Notes under the pieces: model-generated
What the model was told of the DNA's origin: nothing
What the model saw: only the letters and a program-made list of their open reading frames with translations
The model's database searches: none
Position numbers and translations under genes: made by a program
Shown: positions 40,734-64,000 of the stretch, piece by piece
Layout of the letters: the number at the start of each line of letters is the position of its first letter
How positions within the stretch are numbered: the stretch's first letter is position 1
Assembly (NCBI GenBank): GCA_951406725.2
Contig: OX597823.1
Coordinates: 42,532,001 to 42,596,000 of the forward strand
Length of the DNA: 64,000 nucleotides
Direction of reading: 5' to 3'
Origin: Octopus vulgaris
Lineage: Eukaryota

Positions 40734-40789
<56 letters not shown>

Positions 40790-41145
40790 TGGATTAACTG
40801 TTTGGATTAACTGTTAAGAGTTTGGATTAACTGTTGAACTGGACGGACGTCTATTTGTTTCTCTCCCGAGTCAGTAGCAAGCTACACAGCTTCAAAACTA
40901 ACTGACCTTAAATATATATATATTTGTAACCACGTGTTTGCCTACAAACCCGTAAGTACGTTTTCATTTAACTACAAATTGTTATATACACCTGTTTTTC
41001 TTTTAATATCCTCAAACAACCAAATAATCAAAAACTCACACCCTTAAGAGAGAACATTTATATATATATACACTTCTTTAACTCCCAAGAAAGAATATAT
41101 ATATTTTCAAAAATCAAAAGGAAAACAAACAAAAGAAAAACAAAC

Positions 41146-42372
41146 ATGACTAACTTGCAGGCCTGCAACAGACGAAATTGGTCTGATAACGAAATTGATG
41201 TTTTAATAAACACATGGCTCTCTCTTTCCCAAACAGAAAATCTAAATGTCTTGTGTTTGAATGAGATTGCCGAAAAAACATCACAAGTGGTCAACACACG
41301 ATCCGTCAAACAGATTCGTAGCAAGTTGAAACATATCGAAGTATCTTTCAAACTGATAAGAGGCCATTATGAAAAGCTTCTACATATTTTCACAGTTCAA
41401 GAACAACAACAGCTAGAAAATCAGCAGCCACAACAACAACAACAACAGAATGAGCCACTCCTGGTTCCCAACACAATGGCTGACCCTGACATCGGTCAGG
41501 CACAACAACAACAACAACAGCCACAGCAACAAGAACAACAACAGCCACTCCTCAACTCTAGCTTACTAGACGATTCACTAAATGCCAGTATCTTTTCACC
41601 GCTCTCACAGCAACCACCACAATTATCATCATCATCATCACCACCGCTGCCACCATCGTCTTCTATCACCAAAAATACCAACAGAAAACCAAATAAGAAA
41701 CCACTGCCCTCTTCCCCCACATCACCACCTCAATACTACTGCAGTAACAAAAACTTAAAGAAACATAGGAAGCAGAATGCGCCCCCCACGGCACAAACAA
41801 GAAATCCCCAAATATGCCGCTATTCACTGCGCCAGAGACTCTGCACAAATAGTGACTGCATCTTCACGCATCTACCCGGCACTAGACGCACTACTGGCCA
41901 AGGCCAAAGCACGCATCCCACAATAACATCAACACCACCAAATAGTAAATCGAAATTCAAAACACACACAACTCGGAGTCCCAAAATCTGCCGGTATTCC
42001 CAACGTGAGAGAACATGTCTACTGAGTGACTGTCCCTTCACTCATCTTCCAGGGACCCGACGCACAAACAGAAACGGGGCCTCAAGCCAACACACAAACC
42101 TGAATAACAATAAAAATAGAAACACACCATGCTGCAGTAATGCTGGTCCAGTCTTTTCAGGAAGACACAAAAACAACAACAACAAAAGTGGAAACTACAA
42201 CCCTATCCAACAGTGCAACCACACCTCCAGCCAAAAACTGCTCCCTAAGCAGGAAAATTTTTTAGCCATGTTGAACATGGCAAAAGAGATACACAAAAAC
42301 ATTCTAGCCATCACTCAACACCATCCTATGCTATTACCCCAGTGCACCAATTCCCCACATTGCTGCCACTAA
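41146..42372 (+). CDS. LINE ORF1 (408 aa): Myb/SANT-like N-terminal domain, Q/P/S-rich linker, two CCCH zinc fingers
   Basis: RRNWSDNEIDVLINTW...EIAEK.....RSVKQIRSKLKHI; ICRYSLRQRLCTNSDCIFTHLPGT and ICRYSQRERTCLLSDCPFTHLPGT. Confidence 0.85.
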   Translation: MTNLQACNRRNWSDNEIDVLINTWLSLSQTENLNVLCLNEIAEKTSQVVNTRSVKQIRSKLKHIEVSFKLIRGHYEKLLHIFTVQEQQQLENQQPQQQQQQNEPLLVPNTMADPDIGQAQQQQQQPQQQEQQQPLLNSSLLDDSLNASIFSPLSQQPPQLSSSSSPPLPPSSSITKNTNRKPNKKPLPSSPTSPPQYYCSNKNLKKHRKQNAPPTAQTRNPQICRYSLRQRLCTNSDCIFTHLPGTRRTTGQGQSTHPTITSTPPNSKSKFKTHTTRSPKICRYSQRERTCLLSDCPFTHLPGTRRTNRNGASSQHTNLNNNKNRNTPCCSNAGPVFSGRHKNNNNKSGNYNPIQQCNHTSSQKLLPKQENFLAMLNMAKEIHKNILAITQHHPMLLPQCTNSPHCCH

Positions 42373-43400
42373 CACACACAAAAAATCCAAGCCCCCTGCA
42401 ACAGTCAAAACCAGCCACTATACTAACCTCCACATTCCTACTCAATGCACAAGGTGTCAGCCCTTCCATCAATGCACAAAAATGGAAGGTCCAATTCATT
42501 GAAGACTGGGTTGGTAACCATTCACACCACATCCCTTTCTTCATTCTCACTGAGACCCACCTTGACAACTCCCACTTGGAAGCCGAAGTGAGAGTGAAGA
42601 ATTTCACAACCATCCGCGCGGATCGTATCGGCAGGAGGAAGGGTGGAACTGCCATTTTCCTGCATGATTCATTTACGGCAGATGGAAATAGTATATTCTC
42701 CAACGGCTACTGTGAATCAGTCACCGTGCACAACAAAGCCAATGATCTGACAGTAATTGGGCTCTATAGGCCGCCCCAAACACCCATACTGTGCTTTAAA
42801 GAATGCCTCAACAGCATTAAGTGCTTTATTCAACAGTGCCATTCTAGCAACATACTCATGATGGGAGACTTCAATCTACCCTGTGTTGACTGGACTACAA
42901 ACTGTTTGAAACCAAGCACTCCCGCCTCAACCGCTGACAAAGAAGCAGCAGAGTCACTTTTCGACTTTACGAATGAGTTTTTCTTGTCCCAACTTGTCCT
43001 TGCACCAACAAGACATCAGAACATTTTGGACCTAGTGTTTAGTAACCACACTAACACTATACATAACGTTACAGTGGAAAAAACCCTTCTTTCAGACCAT
43101 GACATGGTTCTCTGTAACATGAAATTCCACCAGCCGAAAGCTAATCCTAGTGACCTTCCTCCAGCCCACCCATTTGACAACATGGATCTCCATAAAGCCA
43201 ACTGGGATGCAATCAGGAACGAGCTATCAAATGTTGACTGGTCCTTTACACATACACACATCTCCACCAACCATAAAACATCTTGGCAGATCTTTGTAGA
43301 CACCGTCACAGACATATGTGCAAAACACTCCCCACCAAGACCTGTGAACAAAAAGTGCAGAATCCCCCAAAACAGAGAAAAACCATTATCAGAAAAATAA
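42249..43400 (+). CDS. LINE ORF2, APE endonuclease part (-1 frame relative to ORF1; no ATG until 42858)
   Basis: LLNAQG, ILTETHL, GGTAIF, YRPP, MGDFNLP, ILDLVF and SDH motifs; frame opens after TAA at 42246-42248. Confidence 0.92.
   Translation, partial: AGKFFSHVEHGKRDTQKHSSHHSTPSYAITPVHQFPTLLPLTHTKNPSPLQQSKPATILTSTFLLNAQGVSPSINAQKWKVQFIEDWVGNHSHHIPFFILTETHLDNSHLEAEVRVKNFTTIRADRIGRRKGGTAIFLHDSFTADGNSIFSNGYCESVTVHNKANDLTVIGLYRPPQTPILCFKECLNSIKCFIQQCHSSNILMMGDFNLPCVDWTTNCLKPSTPASTADKEAAESLFDFTNEFFLSQLVLAPTRHQNILDLVFSNHTNTIHNVTVEKTLLSDHDMVLCNMKFHQPKANPSDLPPAHPFDNMDLHKANWDAIRNELSNVDWSFTHTHISTNHKTSWQIFVDTVTDICAKHSPPRPVNKKCRIPQNREKPLSEK
42255..42281 (+). promoter_or_regulatory. candidate -1 ribosomal frameshift signal (A_AAU_UUU / U_UUU_UUA plus adjacent hairpin)
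   Basis: GAA AAT TTT TTA in the ORF1 frame; GCCATGTT-G-AACATGGC inverted repeat at 42265-42281. Confidence 0.7.
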
Positions 43401-45379
43401 AAAGAACAAACAAAAAAATTAACAAACTAAAGTACTGCCAACAGCAACACACACATTCGACGGCTATCGCACTGCTTGAATCCAAAAAATATAACCTCCA
43501 ACAATGCATGAAGTCCCTCATCAATAACCAAAGATCAGCTGAGGAGAAGTGGGCCATTGAAAAAATCAAACTCAACCCCAAAGTGTTCTTTTCATTTGCG
43601 AGGAAACGCAGGGTCACTGTCTCCACTGTAGGCCCTCTAATTGACGAAACTGGCACTCTCCAAGATAATGCCAAATCCATGGCCGAGATACTGCAGAAAC
43701 AATACTGCTCTGTTTTCAGCAATCCTGATATGGCCGATCTGGGCTGTATCAGTGATGTCAACCCCCAACACACTATATCGGACATAACGTTTAGTGCCCC
43801 TGATGTCTTAGCGGCGATAAACGAAATAAAACACAATTCAGCAGTAGGCCCCGATAGGTTCCCTGCTTGTGTCCTGAAGGTGTGTCGACACCAACTTGCA
43901 TCTCCCCTTGCTAATCTGTGGAGAAACTCACTGGATGCTGGCTATATTCCAAAAAACCTTCTGTCCCAGTCTGTTGTCCCAGTTTTCAAAAAGGGAAACA
44001 AGTCCCTTGCAGTGAATTACCGTCCGATCTCACTCACCTCTCATATCATCAAGGTATTTGAGAGGGTGGTGAGATCTCAAATAACCCAATTTCTGGAAAG
44101 CAACAGACGGCTGATCTCCAACCAACATGGGTTCCGTAATGGAAGGGACTGCCTAACGCAGCTCCTGCATCACTTTGAGGACATTTTGAGAGCTTTGGGA
44201 GAGGGCTCCAACACCGATGTCATCTACCTTGATTTCAGTAAGGCCTTCGACAGGGTCGATCACAAGATCCTATTGAAAAAACTATCCAACATTGGTGTCT
44301 CTGGAAAGTTACTGAAATGGATTAAGTGTTTCCTGACAGACAGATCTCAACATGTTGTAGTTGAAGGGGTAAAATCAAGCCCAGCCAAAGTCAGTAGTGG
44401 CGTTCCGCAAGGCACTGTGCTGGGCCCACTTCTTTTCATCATTTACATTAATGACATTAATGACATCATCAAGCACAGCAACATAAAAATCTTTGCAGAT
44501 GACTCCAAGCTACAGAAGGTCATAAATGAGGCGAGTGACCGGACATGCCTTCAGTCAGATCTACTGGCTGTTATCCAATGGGCAGAAAAAAACAATATGC
44601 TGCTGAACGAGGATAAATTTGAGCTAATCCACTTTGGAAAAGAAGATGCCCTGAAACTCCCATACTCCCTTCCTTCAGGTGAAACTCTCGCGGCGTCCAA
44701 CAACATCAGAGACTTGGGAGTAATTGTGGACAACAACGTAAGCTGGGCCACTCATATAAACACCAAAGTTGACATGGCCCGCAGAATGTGTTCCTGGATT
44801 CTCAGAACTTTCCAGTCGAGAGATATCCACACCATTATCCTTCTCTTCTCCACTTTTGCCCGACCCCACCTTGAATACTGTTGTCCACTGTGGTCTCCCC
44901 ACACAATACAAGGTATCAAAAAAGTCGAAGCACCTCAAAGGGCAATCACAAAAAAGATAGATGGCATGACAGGCCTCGACTATTGGGGTCGACTAGAAAA
45001 GCTAAAACTCTATTCTCTCCAACGTCGTCGTGAGCGCTACATCATCTGCATGATGTGGAAAATATTCCATCAGCATTGCCCAAATGATGTTGGCATCACC
45101 TTTAAGGTACATCCAAGGCTTGGGCCCCGTGCCATCCGCCCAAAACAAAAATCGCACTCTCATCTCATAACAACAATACGGCACAATTATTTCACCTCAA
45201 TTGGCCCCGCTCTCTTTAACATTACACCAAAACACATTAAAACAGAAACTGACCCTATAGGGTTCAAGAAGTCTTTGGACAGATTCCTTCAAGAAATCCC
45301 GGATAAACCCCCTACACCCGGATATGCCTCTGTAAACAATAACTCTCTACTTGAGTGGGCCATAGTGCCCAAATTCTGA
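43283..45379 (+). CDS. LINE ORF2, reverse transcriptase part (joined to the EN part across one indel at ~43365-43382)
   Basis: [64 protein letters not shown]; no internal stops. Confidence 0.95.
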   Translation: MADLCRHRHRHMCKTLPTKTCEQKVQNPPKQRKTIIRKIKRTNKKINKLKYCQQQHTHSTAIALLESKKYNLQQCMKSLINNQRSAEEKWAIEKIKLNPKVFFSFARKRRVTVSTVGPLIDETGTLQDNAKSMAEILQKQYCSVFSNPDMADLGCISDVNPQHTISDITFSAPDVLAAINEIKHNSAVGPDRFPACVLKVCRHQLASPLANLWRNSLDAGYIPKNLLSQSVVPVFKKGNKSLAVNYRPISLTSHIIKVFERVVRSQITQFLESNRRLISNQHGFRNGRDCLTQLLHHFEDILRALGEGSNTDVIYLDFSKAFDRVDHKILLKKLSNIGVSGKLLKWIKCFLTDRSQHVVVEGVKSSPAKVSSGVPQGTVLGPLLFIIYINDINDIIKHSNIKIFADDSKLQKVINEASDRTCLQSDLLAVIQWAEKNNMLLNEDKFELIHFGKEDALKLPYSLPSGETLAASNNIRDLGVIVDNNVSWATHINTKVDMARRMCSWILRTFQSRDIHTIILLFSTFARPHLEYCCPLWSPHTIQGIKKVEAPQRAITKKIDGMTGLDYWGRLEKLKLYSLQRRRERYIICMMWKIFHQHCPNDVGITFKVHPRLGPRAIRPKQKSHSHLITTIRHNYFTSIGPALFNITPKHIKTETDPIGFKKSLDRFLQEIPDKPPTPGYASVNNNSLLEWAIVPKF

Positions 45380-46316
45380 CTTGAAAGACTTCACCAGGTG
45401 GTGCTATTAAGTTAGACATGGCCTGGGCCAATAATGGCCGAAACCTATCAAAGTATCAAAGTATCAAAGTATATATATACGCGTGTTTGTGTAATAGTGC
45501 ATAGTAATTTAAAGATTCATTTATATACTTATATAGGCACCCATATATTACATGATAGCATGTGTGTTTCTGCTTCTATGTATGTACGCATATATGAGTG
45601 TGTATTTATTTGAATATGTATATTCGTGTGCATGTAGATATGTAGATGTATGTGTGCATGTGTGTATAAGTGTGTGTATGGGTGTGTGGGCGTATTTGTG
45701 TGTGTGTACGTCCATATACGTTCTTATAAGCAGAGACATATATGACATTCATGAAACCAATTATATTCATCGGTTTTAATACATCGAAGGAAGATAATGA
45801 AATTATTGTTGTCTATGTCTCATGTTAGATCAATATTTATTGCATTTGGGAGAGAAATGTCATGAGTGACAACATCAACGTTCCGCTAACAATTAGAGTT
45901 CCACCATTACTCGGATGAAGACTTCATCGATACTACACCAAGCTTGTGTTCTAGTTATTTCAACGATACTTATTTGCCGAGTTAGTGTGAGACTCAGTGG
46001 CTGGCTGGATTATGTTCCAGCTACGTGGTTTGTAACACAAAATGCTAAACACATCCGAGAATTTCATTAAAACTGTCGATGTAGTAAAGCCAGCAAGTGT
46101 GGTTTGATGTTATATCGTATACAGTTTGGATAACGATAGAGTAATTCTTAAATCAGATGATATATAAATTAGGATGAAGTGCCCGGACAATAGGATTACT
46201 GGCTTCTACGTGGTTTGCTGCTATTTCCTATTGCAAACGCTAACCGTATCTGAAGAAATTCATTAAACAGTTAGATACGAAATAGTAATAAGAGTGGGTT
46301 GTTAATGTCTATATCA

Positions 46317-59320: not shown

Positions 59321-62300
59321 TAGAAAATATGAAGGCCGACCTAAGCCAGGAGATCCAACGAGCTATCAGCAACCATTTATGCAAATCACAAGGACCACAC
59401 ACCCACTACCAACAAGAAAATCATACACACACAGCTCCATACAAGAACTACCCACATTGTTACCACTGAACAACATAAAACATAACTTAGAACAATGCAA
59501 ACATCAAACTTCCCTTACCTCGACATTCCTGTTAAATGTACGTGGCATCAACTCATCAATTATTGCCCAAAAATGAAAGATCCCATATATAGAGAGTTGG
59601 CTTGCCGAAACGGCACATTGCTTCCATTTCTTTATCCTTACTGAGACTCACCTGAACAACACCCATATGGACGCCGTGGTGAAAATAAAAGATTTCACCA
59701 TTGTTCGTGCGGATCGAACAGACCGAAATAAGGGAGGGACAGCCATCTTTATCCATGACTCCTTTTCACTTGATGCCAAGGACATATTTTCCAATGGCTA
59801 TTGTGAATCTGTATCACTATTCAGCAAGGCCAAGGACATAATCATTGTTGGTCTTTACAGGCCTCCCCAAGCATCTCTAAAGTGCTTTGAAGAGTGCCTT
59901 AGCAAAGTCAAGTCCTTCCTTCGGAAGTACAACTCCGGAAACATACTAGTGATAGGTGATTTTAACCTCCCTCATGTGAACTGGCCCACAAATACTCTGA
60001 AGTTAGGCAAATGCTCTACATCAGATAGAGCAGCAGCAGAACTGCTCTTTAATCTAATGGATGAATACTTCCTGACTCAGCTAGTGCTCGAACCAACGAG
60101 ACAGAATAAAACGATCTTGGATCTGGTATTGACCAATCACTCTAGCTTCGTTCACAGTATTTCAGTTGAAAAACTCTCCTCTCAGACCACGACATGGTAC
60201 TCTGCAATTTTAATTCCCGACATATAAAAACCAAACCAGCCAATCCCACTCCATGGCACTCATTTTACAACATAAACTTCCACAAAGCGGACTGAGGAGC
60301 AATCAGAAAGGATCTGTCTTTTATCGACTGGTCTTTTACTCTCAATTCCACCCATATTGAGACCGCATGGCAGCACTTTGACAACATTGTCACCTATACA
60401 TGCTCTAAACACGCTCCCACGAAATCTACTAACACAAACAGAAACCGGCTCCCTAAAAAGAAAAAAAACACTCATCAGGCGCATCAAAAGACTCAACAAA
60501 AAAATCAACCAATTAAAATATTCCCACATACAACATTCACATTCAACAACAATAAAAAGGCTAGAGCTGGAAAAACTTCATCTGCAGACCGACATGAAAA
60601 CCTCCATTGAAAATCAAAGAGCTGTGGAGGAGCAGTGAGTAATCAAAAAACATCAAACAGAACCCAAAAGTGTTCTATTCTTATGCAAATAAGCATAGAA
60701 CCACTGTCTCACCCATTGAGCCATTGACTGATGATAACGGCATTCCCCAACACGATGCTAAAGAAATGGCAGAAATACTGCAGAAACAATACTGCTCTGT
60801 CTTTAGTGTTCCCACTGATATTGACGTAAGAGAAGCGAACGAAGTTGACTCCCAACATAAAATCTCAGACATAACCTTCACTGCCACTGACATCATAGCA
60901 GCAATAAATGAGGTCAAATACTACTCTGCTGTAGGCCCTGATAGATTCCCCGCTAGTCTCCTGAAGGAATGTAGACACCAACTTGCAGTCCCTCTGACCA
61001 ACCTCTGGAGAAATTCGTTAGACGCAGGTTATATACCGAAACAGTTTCTATCCCAGTCAGTCATCCCGGTTTTCGAACAGGGAAACATATCCCTCGCAGT
61101 CAACTATTGCCCAATCTCACTCACCTCCCACATCATTAATGTGTTTGAAAGAGTGTTAAGATCAAGGATAGCTGACTTCCTGGAGACCCGCAAACTCCTA
61201 AATGCAAATCAGCATGGCTTTCGCTGTGGCAGGGACTGTCTAACACAGCTCTTACACCACATTGAAGATATACTCAAAGCCTTGGGAACAGGTTCGAACT
61301 CTGATGTCATATATCTTGACTTCAGTAAAGCGTTCGACAGGGTAGACCATAATATCCTACTCTCAAAATTGGCAAATGTTGGAATCCGTGGAAAAGTTCT
61401 ACACTGGATTAAGTATTTCCTGGCGAATAGAACACAACATGATGTAGTTGATGGAGTCCACTCAAGCCCAGCAAAAGTCACCAGCGGTGTTCCCCAGGGG
61501 ACTGTCTTGGGCCCGCTACTCTTCATAATTTACATAAACGACCTTTCCAGTGTCGTACATTACTGCAAAGGGAAAATATTTGCTGATGACACTAAGCTCC
61601 AGCAAATCGTCAATGAAGAAGCAGACTGAACTCAACTCCAGTCCGATCTATATGCTGTGAGTCAATGGGCAGACAGAAACAAAATGCAACTGAACGAGGG
61701 AAAATTTGAGCTGATGCATTTTGGAAGAAATTCCTCACTAAAACAGCCATACTCTCTTCCTTCAGGGGAACCGCTCACAGCCTCTAACAATATCAGAGAC
61801 CTGGGTGTAATTGTTGATGATGATTTCAGTTGGAGTGCACACATCAACAATAAGGTCGATATAGCTCGTAGGATGAGTTCCTGGATCTTAAGAACATTCC
61901 GGTCCAGAGAACAAGGTGTCATCATACCATTTTTCTCATCATTTGTACGGCCACACCTCGAATACTGCTGCCCACTGTGGTCTCCCCATACAAGACAAAA
62001 CATCTCGAGGATTGAATCACCCCAGAGGGCACTCACTAAACGAATTGAAGGCATGGCTGCTCTCGATTATTGGGATCGCCTTAAAGCCTTGAAACTCTAC
62101 TCTCTCCAGCGTCGCCGTGAGCGGTACATCATTTGTACGATGTGGAGAATATACCGCCAACTTTGCCCAAACGACCTGAACATTAGCTTCAAGGTTCATC
62201 CAAGACTGGGACCACGGGCCATACGTCCCCTGTCCAATTCAAGATTACAGCATACATGTACACTGCAACATAATTTCTTTTCCTCAACAGGCCCTGCCCT

Positions 62301-62557
62301 ATTTAACATTGTTCCGAAAGAGATCAAAGAGGAAAAGTATCCCATCAACTTTAAACGGAGTCTGGATAGATTCCTTCAAGGAATACCAGATAAGCCTACC
62401 ATAATTGGATACAACTCACCCAACAAAAAACTCACTACTTGAATGGACCATAAACAAAACTTGACTTAAACAGGATTCAAATAATCTATCAGGTGGTGCT
62501 ATTAAGTTAGACATGGCCTGGACCAATCTTTGGTCGAAACATATCTAAGTTTATCTA

Positions 62558-62561
<4 letters not shown>
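59321..62561 (+). mobile_element. 5'-truncated, decayed CR1-group LINE (element 2), sister family of element 1
   Basis: ORF pieces 59316-59576, 59667-60227, 60357-60638, 60670-61629 and 61657-62442 align in order with element 1 ORF2, with several stops and frameshifts; same 3'UTR block; (TATCTAAGTT)2 tail. Confidence 0.95.
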
Positions 62562-63215
<654 letters not shown>

Positions 63216-64000
63216 TTTTACTAAATATTGGGGGCCTGTTGCATCAAAATAGAAACAAAATTTCTTTCCTGAGAGATCTTACTGCATGCAATCAAGCCCT
63301 ATGCATAGCACTTATGGAAACTCACCTCAACCCTGATATAGAGGACGCAGAAGTACACATACCCAACTGTGCCATACTGCGAACAGACAGAAGGGAAAGG
63401 AGCCATGGTGGAGTTGCTGTATACATCCGAGATGACCTCACACCCCAGGTCTTAATGACATACTCAAATTCGGTATGTGACACTTTAATTGTATACATAA
63501 GACAACATAATATAGTCATATGCAATACATATTGCCCACCGGATGCCCCAAATCACATAGGCAAGTTTGAAGATTGACTCACAAGAATTAAAGAAATCCT
63601 CATGAATCTGGAACACCACGTGACCATATTTCTTATGGGTGATTTCAACTTCCCCAACGTCAAATGGCCCGAAGTTCACATACTCTCAGGAATGAATCAT
63701 TGGAAGCAAGTACAAGTGGAGTCCCTGCTCAACCTCACCAATGCTTTATTCATGGAGCAAGTTGTACTCAAGCTAACTAGGGCGAATAACATTCTGGATC
63801 TCTGCTTCACGAACAATATGGACATCATTCATGATGTGAAAGTGACACCGACATCAGTTTCGGATCACAACATAATAGAGCTGTCTATGTTTGGGCCAAA
63901 AGTAACCAGAGACATACAGCCTAAAGGAAGCACCCGAAATCTCTCCAATCTGAACTTCCACAAAGCAGATTGGAAATCGATCCAAAAAGAGATCCTCAGA

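Follow-up and report, generated by a model that had tools for sequence, protein, structure and literature searches.

A conserved slippery heptamer at the ORF1–ORF2 junction points to retrovirus-type -1 frameshifting in a LINE clade found in octopus and metagenomes

Results and discussion

The LINE copy and its overlapping reading frames

The DNA analysed here (the window, which is the whole stretch of 64,000 nt from Octopus vulgaris contig OX597823.1, positions 42,532,001–42,596,000 of the forward strand; all coordinates below are those of the window) contains a full-length young copy of a LINE family that we refer to as family A, and further along it the junction of a distant family, E. The features are as follows:

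40787..45472 (+): the family A LINE copy, young and full-length, which lies within (TA)n and ends in a (AAAGTATC)n tail; the top copies of the family are a few substitutions per kb apart.
41146..42372 (+): ORF1, 408 aa in the window copy and 409 aa in the common form, with a Myb/SANT-like N-terminal match, two CCCH-pattern fingers and a C-terminal tail 3′ of the shift site.
42246..42248 (+): TAA, the last -1-frame stop before the site, from the reading frames.
42249..43400 (+): 5′ part of ORF2, an S/T/P/Q-rich leader followed by an APE-type endonuclease (EN; Pfam PF14529, E=8e-14, and PF03372, E=8e-08).
42255..42261 (+): A_AAU_UUU, found in T-only minority forms only, such as the window copy (3 nt shorter than the common form).
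42258..42264 (+): predicted site of the -1 shift, a U_UUU_UUA heptamer in phase with ORF1 that is kept in the family and the clade.
42265..42281 (+): inverted repeat GCCATGTT-G-AACATGGC directly 3′ of the heptamer, family-specific and not conserved, with which an alternative stem at 42269–42320 competes.
42265..42372 (+): dual-coding overlap of the ORF1 tail (0 frame) and the AUG-less ORF2 leader (-1 frame), from the reading frames.
43374..43375 (+): extra AG, private to the window copy, which breaks ORF2 between EN and RT.
43376..45379 (+): 3′ part of ORF2, the reverse transcriptase (RT; Pfam PF00078, E=3e-30).
63065..63071 (+): U_UUU_UUA site of family E, a distant family with 30% aa identity; TGA at 63053–55 is the stop after which its -1 frame is open.

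With an ORF2 that carries an APE endonuclease and RT according to Pfam, family A is an APE-type non-LTR element, and its copies are without LTRs, share a common 3′ end with a simple-repeat tail and are variably truncated at the 5′ end. The EN matches L1 EN structures weakly (E~0.007). The family may be CR1-like, having RT motifs and an 8-nt tandem (AAAGTATC)n tail that resemble those of CR1. Both ends lie in (TA)n microsatellites in 7/7 copies looked at (40787–40831 and 45446–45480 in the window), which suggests a target preference of family A; the host genome is 2.8 Gb and rich in microsatellites. The window copy also has a 13-nt 5′ motif that is repeated three times.

The N-terminal match of ORF1 (41146–41370; Pfam PF13837, E=2.5e-05) is below the curated cut-off, and its fingers are recognised as two CCCH patterns by regex count (Pfam zf-CCCH_2 gives E=0.14). 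Several relatives have a PHD finger where family A is Myb/SANT-like (a weak PHD is seen in 4/15 ORF1s, those of L100, L105, L108 and L109), and a domain swap is possible. The search for ORF1 homologs gave no match, a genome search with the finger pattern found family A only, and no relatives were found in the viral contigs searched.

In the preliminary description, ORF2 was placed in the -1 frame of ORF1, open from 42249 after TAA 42246–48 and overlapping ORF1 up to its stop at 42370–72, and all of these coordinates check. The first in-frame ATG of ORF2 is indeed at 42858, 3′ of the EN motifs LNAQG (42441), TETHL (42549) and YRPP (42765), and the start given by the ORF track (42342) is a GTG. 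The window copy itself is damaged, being 3 nt short at the site and having ORF2 broken at 43374 by the extra AG, which is absent from 28 of the 29 other copies compared (the remaining copy does not reach that position) and from all four read-contig sets. As this break falls between EN and RT, the window copy cannot make an RT-bearing fusion, and the suggestion that the element makes one has to be corrected for this copy.

The junction within family A

A flank-anchored pattern gave 379 genomic family A matches, and amongst the first 100 listed the site is 32 nt long in 63, 31 nt in 17, 30 nt in ten, 29 nt in eight (the class of the window copy) and 33 nt in two. In the ORF1 frame the common form reads CAG GAA AAT TCT TTT TTA GCC and is 3 nt longer than the window copy. 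Since it has AAT TCT TTT TTA, what characterises the family is the -1 relation together with U_UUU_UUA, without A_AAU_UUU; the preliminary description had pointed to both heptamers, which do overlap in the window copy, and U_UUU_UUA can be retained for the family while A_AAU_UUU is confined to minority forms. (The top 40 copies, a sample biased to window-like copies, had pointed to 2 additional nt, a TAG stop and a +1 relation as the common state, an estimate that the pattern count replaced.) Four of the 20 common-form copies fetched (L034, L038, L043 and L044) have an intact ORF1 together with a -1 frame of 1043 codons, the first Met of which is residue 205, inside EN and after the EN motifs. 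The commonest form keeps the -1 relation instead of a single frame, no in-frame ATG upstream of EN is conserved, and U_UUU_UUA and its phase are kept in the family and the clade, all as would be expected from the preliminary description.

A short-read contig of depth 203, tentatively labelled as DNA, carries the 3-nt addition of the common form. Three contig sets from three studies (X7, X9 and X13), for which the RNA label is a guess, have a T-only addition of the same length that produces a 9-T tract (AAU UUU UUU UUA). This T9 form has 0 exact matches in the assembly and may be a separate subfamily, an allele that is expressed, a C-to-U change or the product of mis-assembly at the locus.

The missing 3 nt and the break at 43374 in the window copy could be taken to mean that the junction is an artefact, with the window presenting a dead copy or an assembly error of an element that has a single frame or an ordinary ORF2 start. 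However, the -1 relation is kept in 63/100 copies, in the contig at depth 203 and in the three putative RNA contigs (type labels tentative), as well as in four other families and 28 outside lineages, and an artefact is refuted at the sequence level and has a vanishingly small probability.

The U-tract (42258–42263) is a site-specific length hotspot, with 37/100 copies non-modal, 35 of them by deletions of 1–3 nt, on all haplotypes. A general homopolymer error is unlikely to be behind this as other runs vary little (33 other 5–7 nt runs vary in mostly 0–6% of copies, the highest values being 9/65 and 1/7), and the hotspot may stem from slippage of RT, from an effect of the hairpin on sequencing, or from RNA that was cleaved at a stalled ribosome and then repaired. 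It also lends something to the proposal that RNA polymerase slips on the T-tract to give minority transcripts with ORF1 and ORF2 in frame, or that in-frame genomic length variants supply ORF2p, as the two ORFs are in-frame in 12/100 copies (30 and 33 nt) and fused frames of 1468 codons are present in the assembly. Yet the length variants turn up repeatedly on every haplotype background without grouping as a separate lineage, the +1 form which slippage and cis preference would be expected to enrich accounts for only 2/100, the out-of-frame form is the commonest in every family examined, and those clade members with a G_GAU_UUU site have only four U. We regard this explanation as very unlikely, although the length hotspot means that polymerase slippage may contribute as a side route.

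Conservation of the heptamer across the clade

An EN alignment provided 80 metagenome loci, of which the 68 with enough upstream DNA were examined and 12 were left out. In the EN tree (55 rows, L112 and L142 left out; sequences without named references), family A and 29 metagenome relatives form one clade of 30/55 rows with support of 100/99. The 40 clade rows were reduced to 29 lineages at <70% EN identity by collapsing 11 near-duplicates (median identity 36% aa), and in 29/29 of these ORF2 is in the -1 frame with an in-phase heptamer where the ORF2 frame opens. L093 ends before the junction and was left out, and L120, which is inside the clade but has neither a site nor an upstream ORF1 frame, was counted as the one miss in 30, giving 29/30 testable lineages with the heptamer. 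The sites are U_UUU_UUA in 22 lineages, G_GAU_UUU in five, and G_UUU_UUA and U_UUU_UUG in one each. It should be added that the relaxed rule which accepts all of these was adopted after the data had been seen, and that the strict rule gives 22/29; G_GA and G_UU are natural exceptions to the XXX rule, with G_GAU_UUU being the pea enation mosaic virus site and G_UU that of equine arteritis virus (PMC5009743).

Slippery sites would be expected in 2.1/29 lineages from amino acids and codon use, which is not a strict probability as the lineages are related, and the lineage counts in general are not independent trials for this reason and because several contigs have one sample prefix. In the phase control, the heptamer was found in 29 of the 29 in the right phase and in one in each wrong phase. 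A relaxed heptamer was present in 32/188 upstream control windows, making a single heptamer in one copy weak evidence, and any of the four observed words in 0/188. Judged by these comparisons, the clade-wide conservation of the in-phase heptamer is not due to chance.

The Phe codon at the site is TTT in 29/29 (the upstream Phe codons are 77 TTT vs 125 TTC) and is preceded by T in 28/29, and the combination of a T before, TTT, and TT after occurs at 1/202 upstream Phe codons. The heptamer lies 0–45 nt after the last -1 stop in 28/29, and the site is the second and not the first Phe after the frame opening in 2/29. In lineages that have lost UUA as the Leu codon, the site is found one codon up as G_GAU_UUU, a shift that is predicted by tRNA re-pairing and not by protein conservation.

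From the site to EN the -1 frame is open for 62–218 codons, whereas upstream in ORF1 -1 stops occur at 8.8% of codons (the absence of stops follows from the definition of the frame but its length does not). This leader is rich in P/S/T/Q and poor in Met (0.3% vs 2.0% in EN); there is no AUG between the site and EN in 22/29 lineages, and the leaders of the other 7/29 contain an in-frame AUG that is not conserved. In 12/29 lineages the stop of ORF1 falls within EN motif I. In these (L113–L119, L121–L124 and L130) the stop is a TAA formed by the Leu-Asn codons of the motif, and ORF1 ends exactly where EN begins.

Such starts as do exist have to be considered, since translation of ORF2 might begin near the ORF1 stop, by termination-reinitiation or at a non-AUG codon, in the manner of L1 and SART1, with the heptamer being merely a conserved Phe-Leu. 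Reinitiation is the accepted route in the LINEs that have been studied (PMC2881922, PMC3894237), with SART1 a precedent for an overlapping ORF2 (PMC3894237, PMC10275272). FL at the site starts a conserved helix-like ORF1 motif, and possible starts are provided by TTG and CTG 7–10 nt before the ORF1 stop in family A, by an ATG 6 nt before it in family C, and by AUGs in the leaders of families B and E. Across the clade, however, no stop-start word is conserved (TAA 22, TAG 5, TGA 2), an AUG is found within 30 nt of the ORF1 stop in 1/29, at odds with SART1-type stop-start coupling, and 14/29 have no ATG, CTG, GTG, TTG or ACG within 30 nt. Taken with the 22/29 lineages having no AUG before EN and the 12 stops overlapping EN motif I, this makes reinitiation unlikely as the common route. 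The motif I Asn is needed in Zorro3, where N17A has <5% activity (PMC1965478), and we infer that N17 is equivalent to the Asn here. Nor does reinitiation account for the constancy of TTT and the T before it, for the change to GGA where UUA has been lost or for the 62–218 open codons upstream, and overall we consider it quite improbable.

A U-tract followed by AG is also reminiscent of a 3′ splice acceptor, and a spliced RNA might join an upstream start to ORF2. An AG ends 7 nt (15/29) or 9 nt (7/29) after the start of the Phe codon, and so within 9 nt in 22/29, and G follows UUA in 15/23 against a background of 28%. This G also matters in HIV-1 frameshifting, however (PMC5009743), and the AG is not fixed in phase (18/9/2) and can be as far as 28 nt away, while C is never found in the tract, which begins with purines (G_GAU_UUU) in five lineages. 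Splicing would be expected to leave processed genomic copies, but a pattern for copies without the T before AG gave two, both point variants with normal upstream sequence, and there is no joint at the site in the four contig sets (contigs drop rare forms). We think it highly unlikely that splicing accounts for the junction.

A downstream RNA stimulator

The weakest step in a frameshift reading of the junction is the stimulator. The hairpin proposed in the preliminary description, GCCATGTT-G-AACATGGC at 42265–81, exists and has a predicted energy of -8.3 kcal/mol, but it is not special (z = -0.98 over 133 nt) and is absent from families B–E; as had been cautioned, it is closer to the heptamer than the usual 5–9 nt spacer, starting 0 nt after U_UUU_UUA. 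An alternative stem at 42269–42320, which starts 4 nt 3′ of the heptamer, is longer and competes with it (z = -2.85 in a 56-nt folding window). Comparison of the 70 nt just after the site in 29 lineages revealed no shared structure, with a mean z of -0.52 vs -0.66 in the upstream control and 5/29 below -2, and no nucleotide motif 3′ of the site in these lineages other than what codon positions 1 and 2 account for. We think it unlikely that the hairpin is a conserved stimulator.

Proposed mechanism and comparison with known systems

We propose that the clade very likely makes EN-RT as an ORF1–ORF2 fusion by programmed -1 ribosomal frameshifting at a heptamer which is mostly U_UUU_UUA. This was the central claim of the preliminary description, and it is supported by the conserved heptamer, its phase and the AUG-less overlap, from which we infer the frameshifting itself. 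The majority of ribosomes would pass the site in the 0 frame and complete ORF1p, including its helix-like C-terminal tail, and a minority would slip by -1 as tRNA-Phe and tRNA-Leu on UUU UUA re-pair to UUU UUU. The slipped ribosomes would then read an S/T/P/Q-rich linker of about 60–220 codons followed by EN and RT, so that the fusion has the linker, EN and RT in place of the ORF1 tail, similar to the replacement of the Gag end in Gag-Pol; in family A this predicts a protein of about 374 + 1037 = 1411 aa with the junction peptide QENSF[L/F]SHVEHGK. More tentatively, the efficiency may be low and, given the lack of a shared local RNA structure in our comparison, depend chiefly on the heptamer and the G that follows it.

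The clade resembles HIV-1 gag-pol and other X_XXY_YYZ sites in its heptamer words and their phase, the AUG-less overlapping -1 ORF, the (in the clade, predicted) fusion of a structural protein to a polymerase, and the common G after UUA (PMC5009743). It differs in being a group of non-LTR elements with an APE endonuclease, no protease or integrase seen and an overlap of 110–610 nt, and whereas such sites usually have a stem-loop or pseudoknot 5–9 nt downstream, no conserved one was found in the clade. Bombyx SART1 (UAAUG coupling) and human L1 (AUG-independent reinitiation) likewise have a bicistronic LINE RNA, and their ORF2 expression is described as low and dependent on ORF1 translation (PMC3894237, PMC2881922, PMC10275272). 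In these two, ORF2p is a protein of its own that starts at the ORF1 stop or beyond it, whereas no such start is conserved in the clade and the signal lies 110–610 nt before the ORF1 stop.

A -1 shift is also described for the Dictyostelium pair TRE5-A / TRE3-A, APE-type non-LTR elements from a different host group for which a review legend states that a -1 frameshift is required for ORF2, the legend passage naming no slippery site or experiment (PMC5911963). Shifts of frame are on record, or have been suggested, for further non-LTR elements: the frameshift of Drosophila HeT-A is inside gag and the element has no RT (PMC5009743), the -1 ORF of R1B overlaps by 14–59 nt with no mechanism given in the text available (PMC2718515), and the Paramecium LINEs have +1 or readthrough junctions that were proposed from consensus (PMC5405496). 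CR1 and other Jockey-superfamily LINEs share with the clade two ORFs, APE and RT, a PHD finger in some ORF1s and a short tandem-repeat tail, but the clade ORF1s carry CCCH-pattern fingers, and in its available text a survey of these elements has 0 mentions of CCCH, Myb, overlap or frameshift (PMC4120745).

The passages available from a large review of frameshifting name HeT-A alone among non-LTR elements and favour initiation for L1 (PMC5009743). LINE ORF2 translation is called an open question in a dedicated review, which lists reinitiation, IRES and 2A peptides and in whose available text the word 'frameshift' is absent (PMC3894237). In our literature searches no published slippery heptamer came up for the junction of a CR1-like LINE, although there may be an earlier mention in subscription papers, Repbase Reports or supplements, and within the reach of these searches -1 frameshifting would be new for this host class of elements.

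On the sequence evidence we are strongly inclined to see the junction as a conserved recoding signal which works like retroviral -1 frameshifting, and the clade-wide slippery site offers a directly testable answer on ORF2 translation for one large LINE group. If this is correct, the RT would travel covalently with an ORF1 moiety and the RNP would be built unlike that of L1, the slip rate would set the ratio of ORF1p to RT, and ORF2 annotations in the clade start too late. For work on frameshifting, the clade would also supply some 30 natural -1 sites that apparently have no local structure in common.

A broader reading, which we think probable, is that an old and widespread LINE clade produces an ORF1-EN-RT polyprotein akin to Gag-Pol through canonical -1 frameshifting of the retroviral type, with no conserved local RNA stimulator, possibly by means of the bare heptamer or of its own CCCH-finger ORF1 protein, and that other LINEs may have got there separately. 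Outside the clade there is no in-phase heptamer in 23/27 examined loci and one is present in four; A_AAA_AAC sites are found in L154 and L168, which belong to other LINE lineages. Two proteins from more distant ORF2 relatives (P0004 and P0005) have an N-terminal NPGP (2A-like) motif, a predicted recoding solution of another kind in related LINEs.

Other families in the octopus genome

A degenerate EN pattern that excluded family A gave 46 matches in the genome, of which 40 were fetched. Families B, C, D and E all keep TCT TTT TTA where the -1 frame opens, with nucleotide identities to family A of 73% for C (L088), 70% for D (L064) and about 66% for the older B; for E the amino acid identity is 30%. 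The sequence is exact in 12/19 matched copies of family B and present in 19/20 of family E (5/25 loci unmatched; 63063–71 in the window). Families B, C and E have an in-frame AUG within the ORF2 leader, which weakens a purely frameshift-based reading for these three.

The family E copy in the window (62790–64000, +) is 5′-truncated and has a CCCH finger, the TCT TTT TTA junction and a -1-frame ATG right after the heptamer; a first look genome-wide gave 1723 candidates for this family. Upstream of it, at about 59340–62560 (+), is a LINE copy that starts just after the shift site, with a family B-like 5′ part (44% aa identity to family A) and a 3′ part with 69% aa identity, which is possibly a chimera of two families or a case of uneven divergence.
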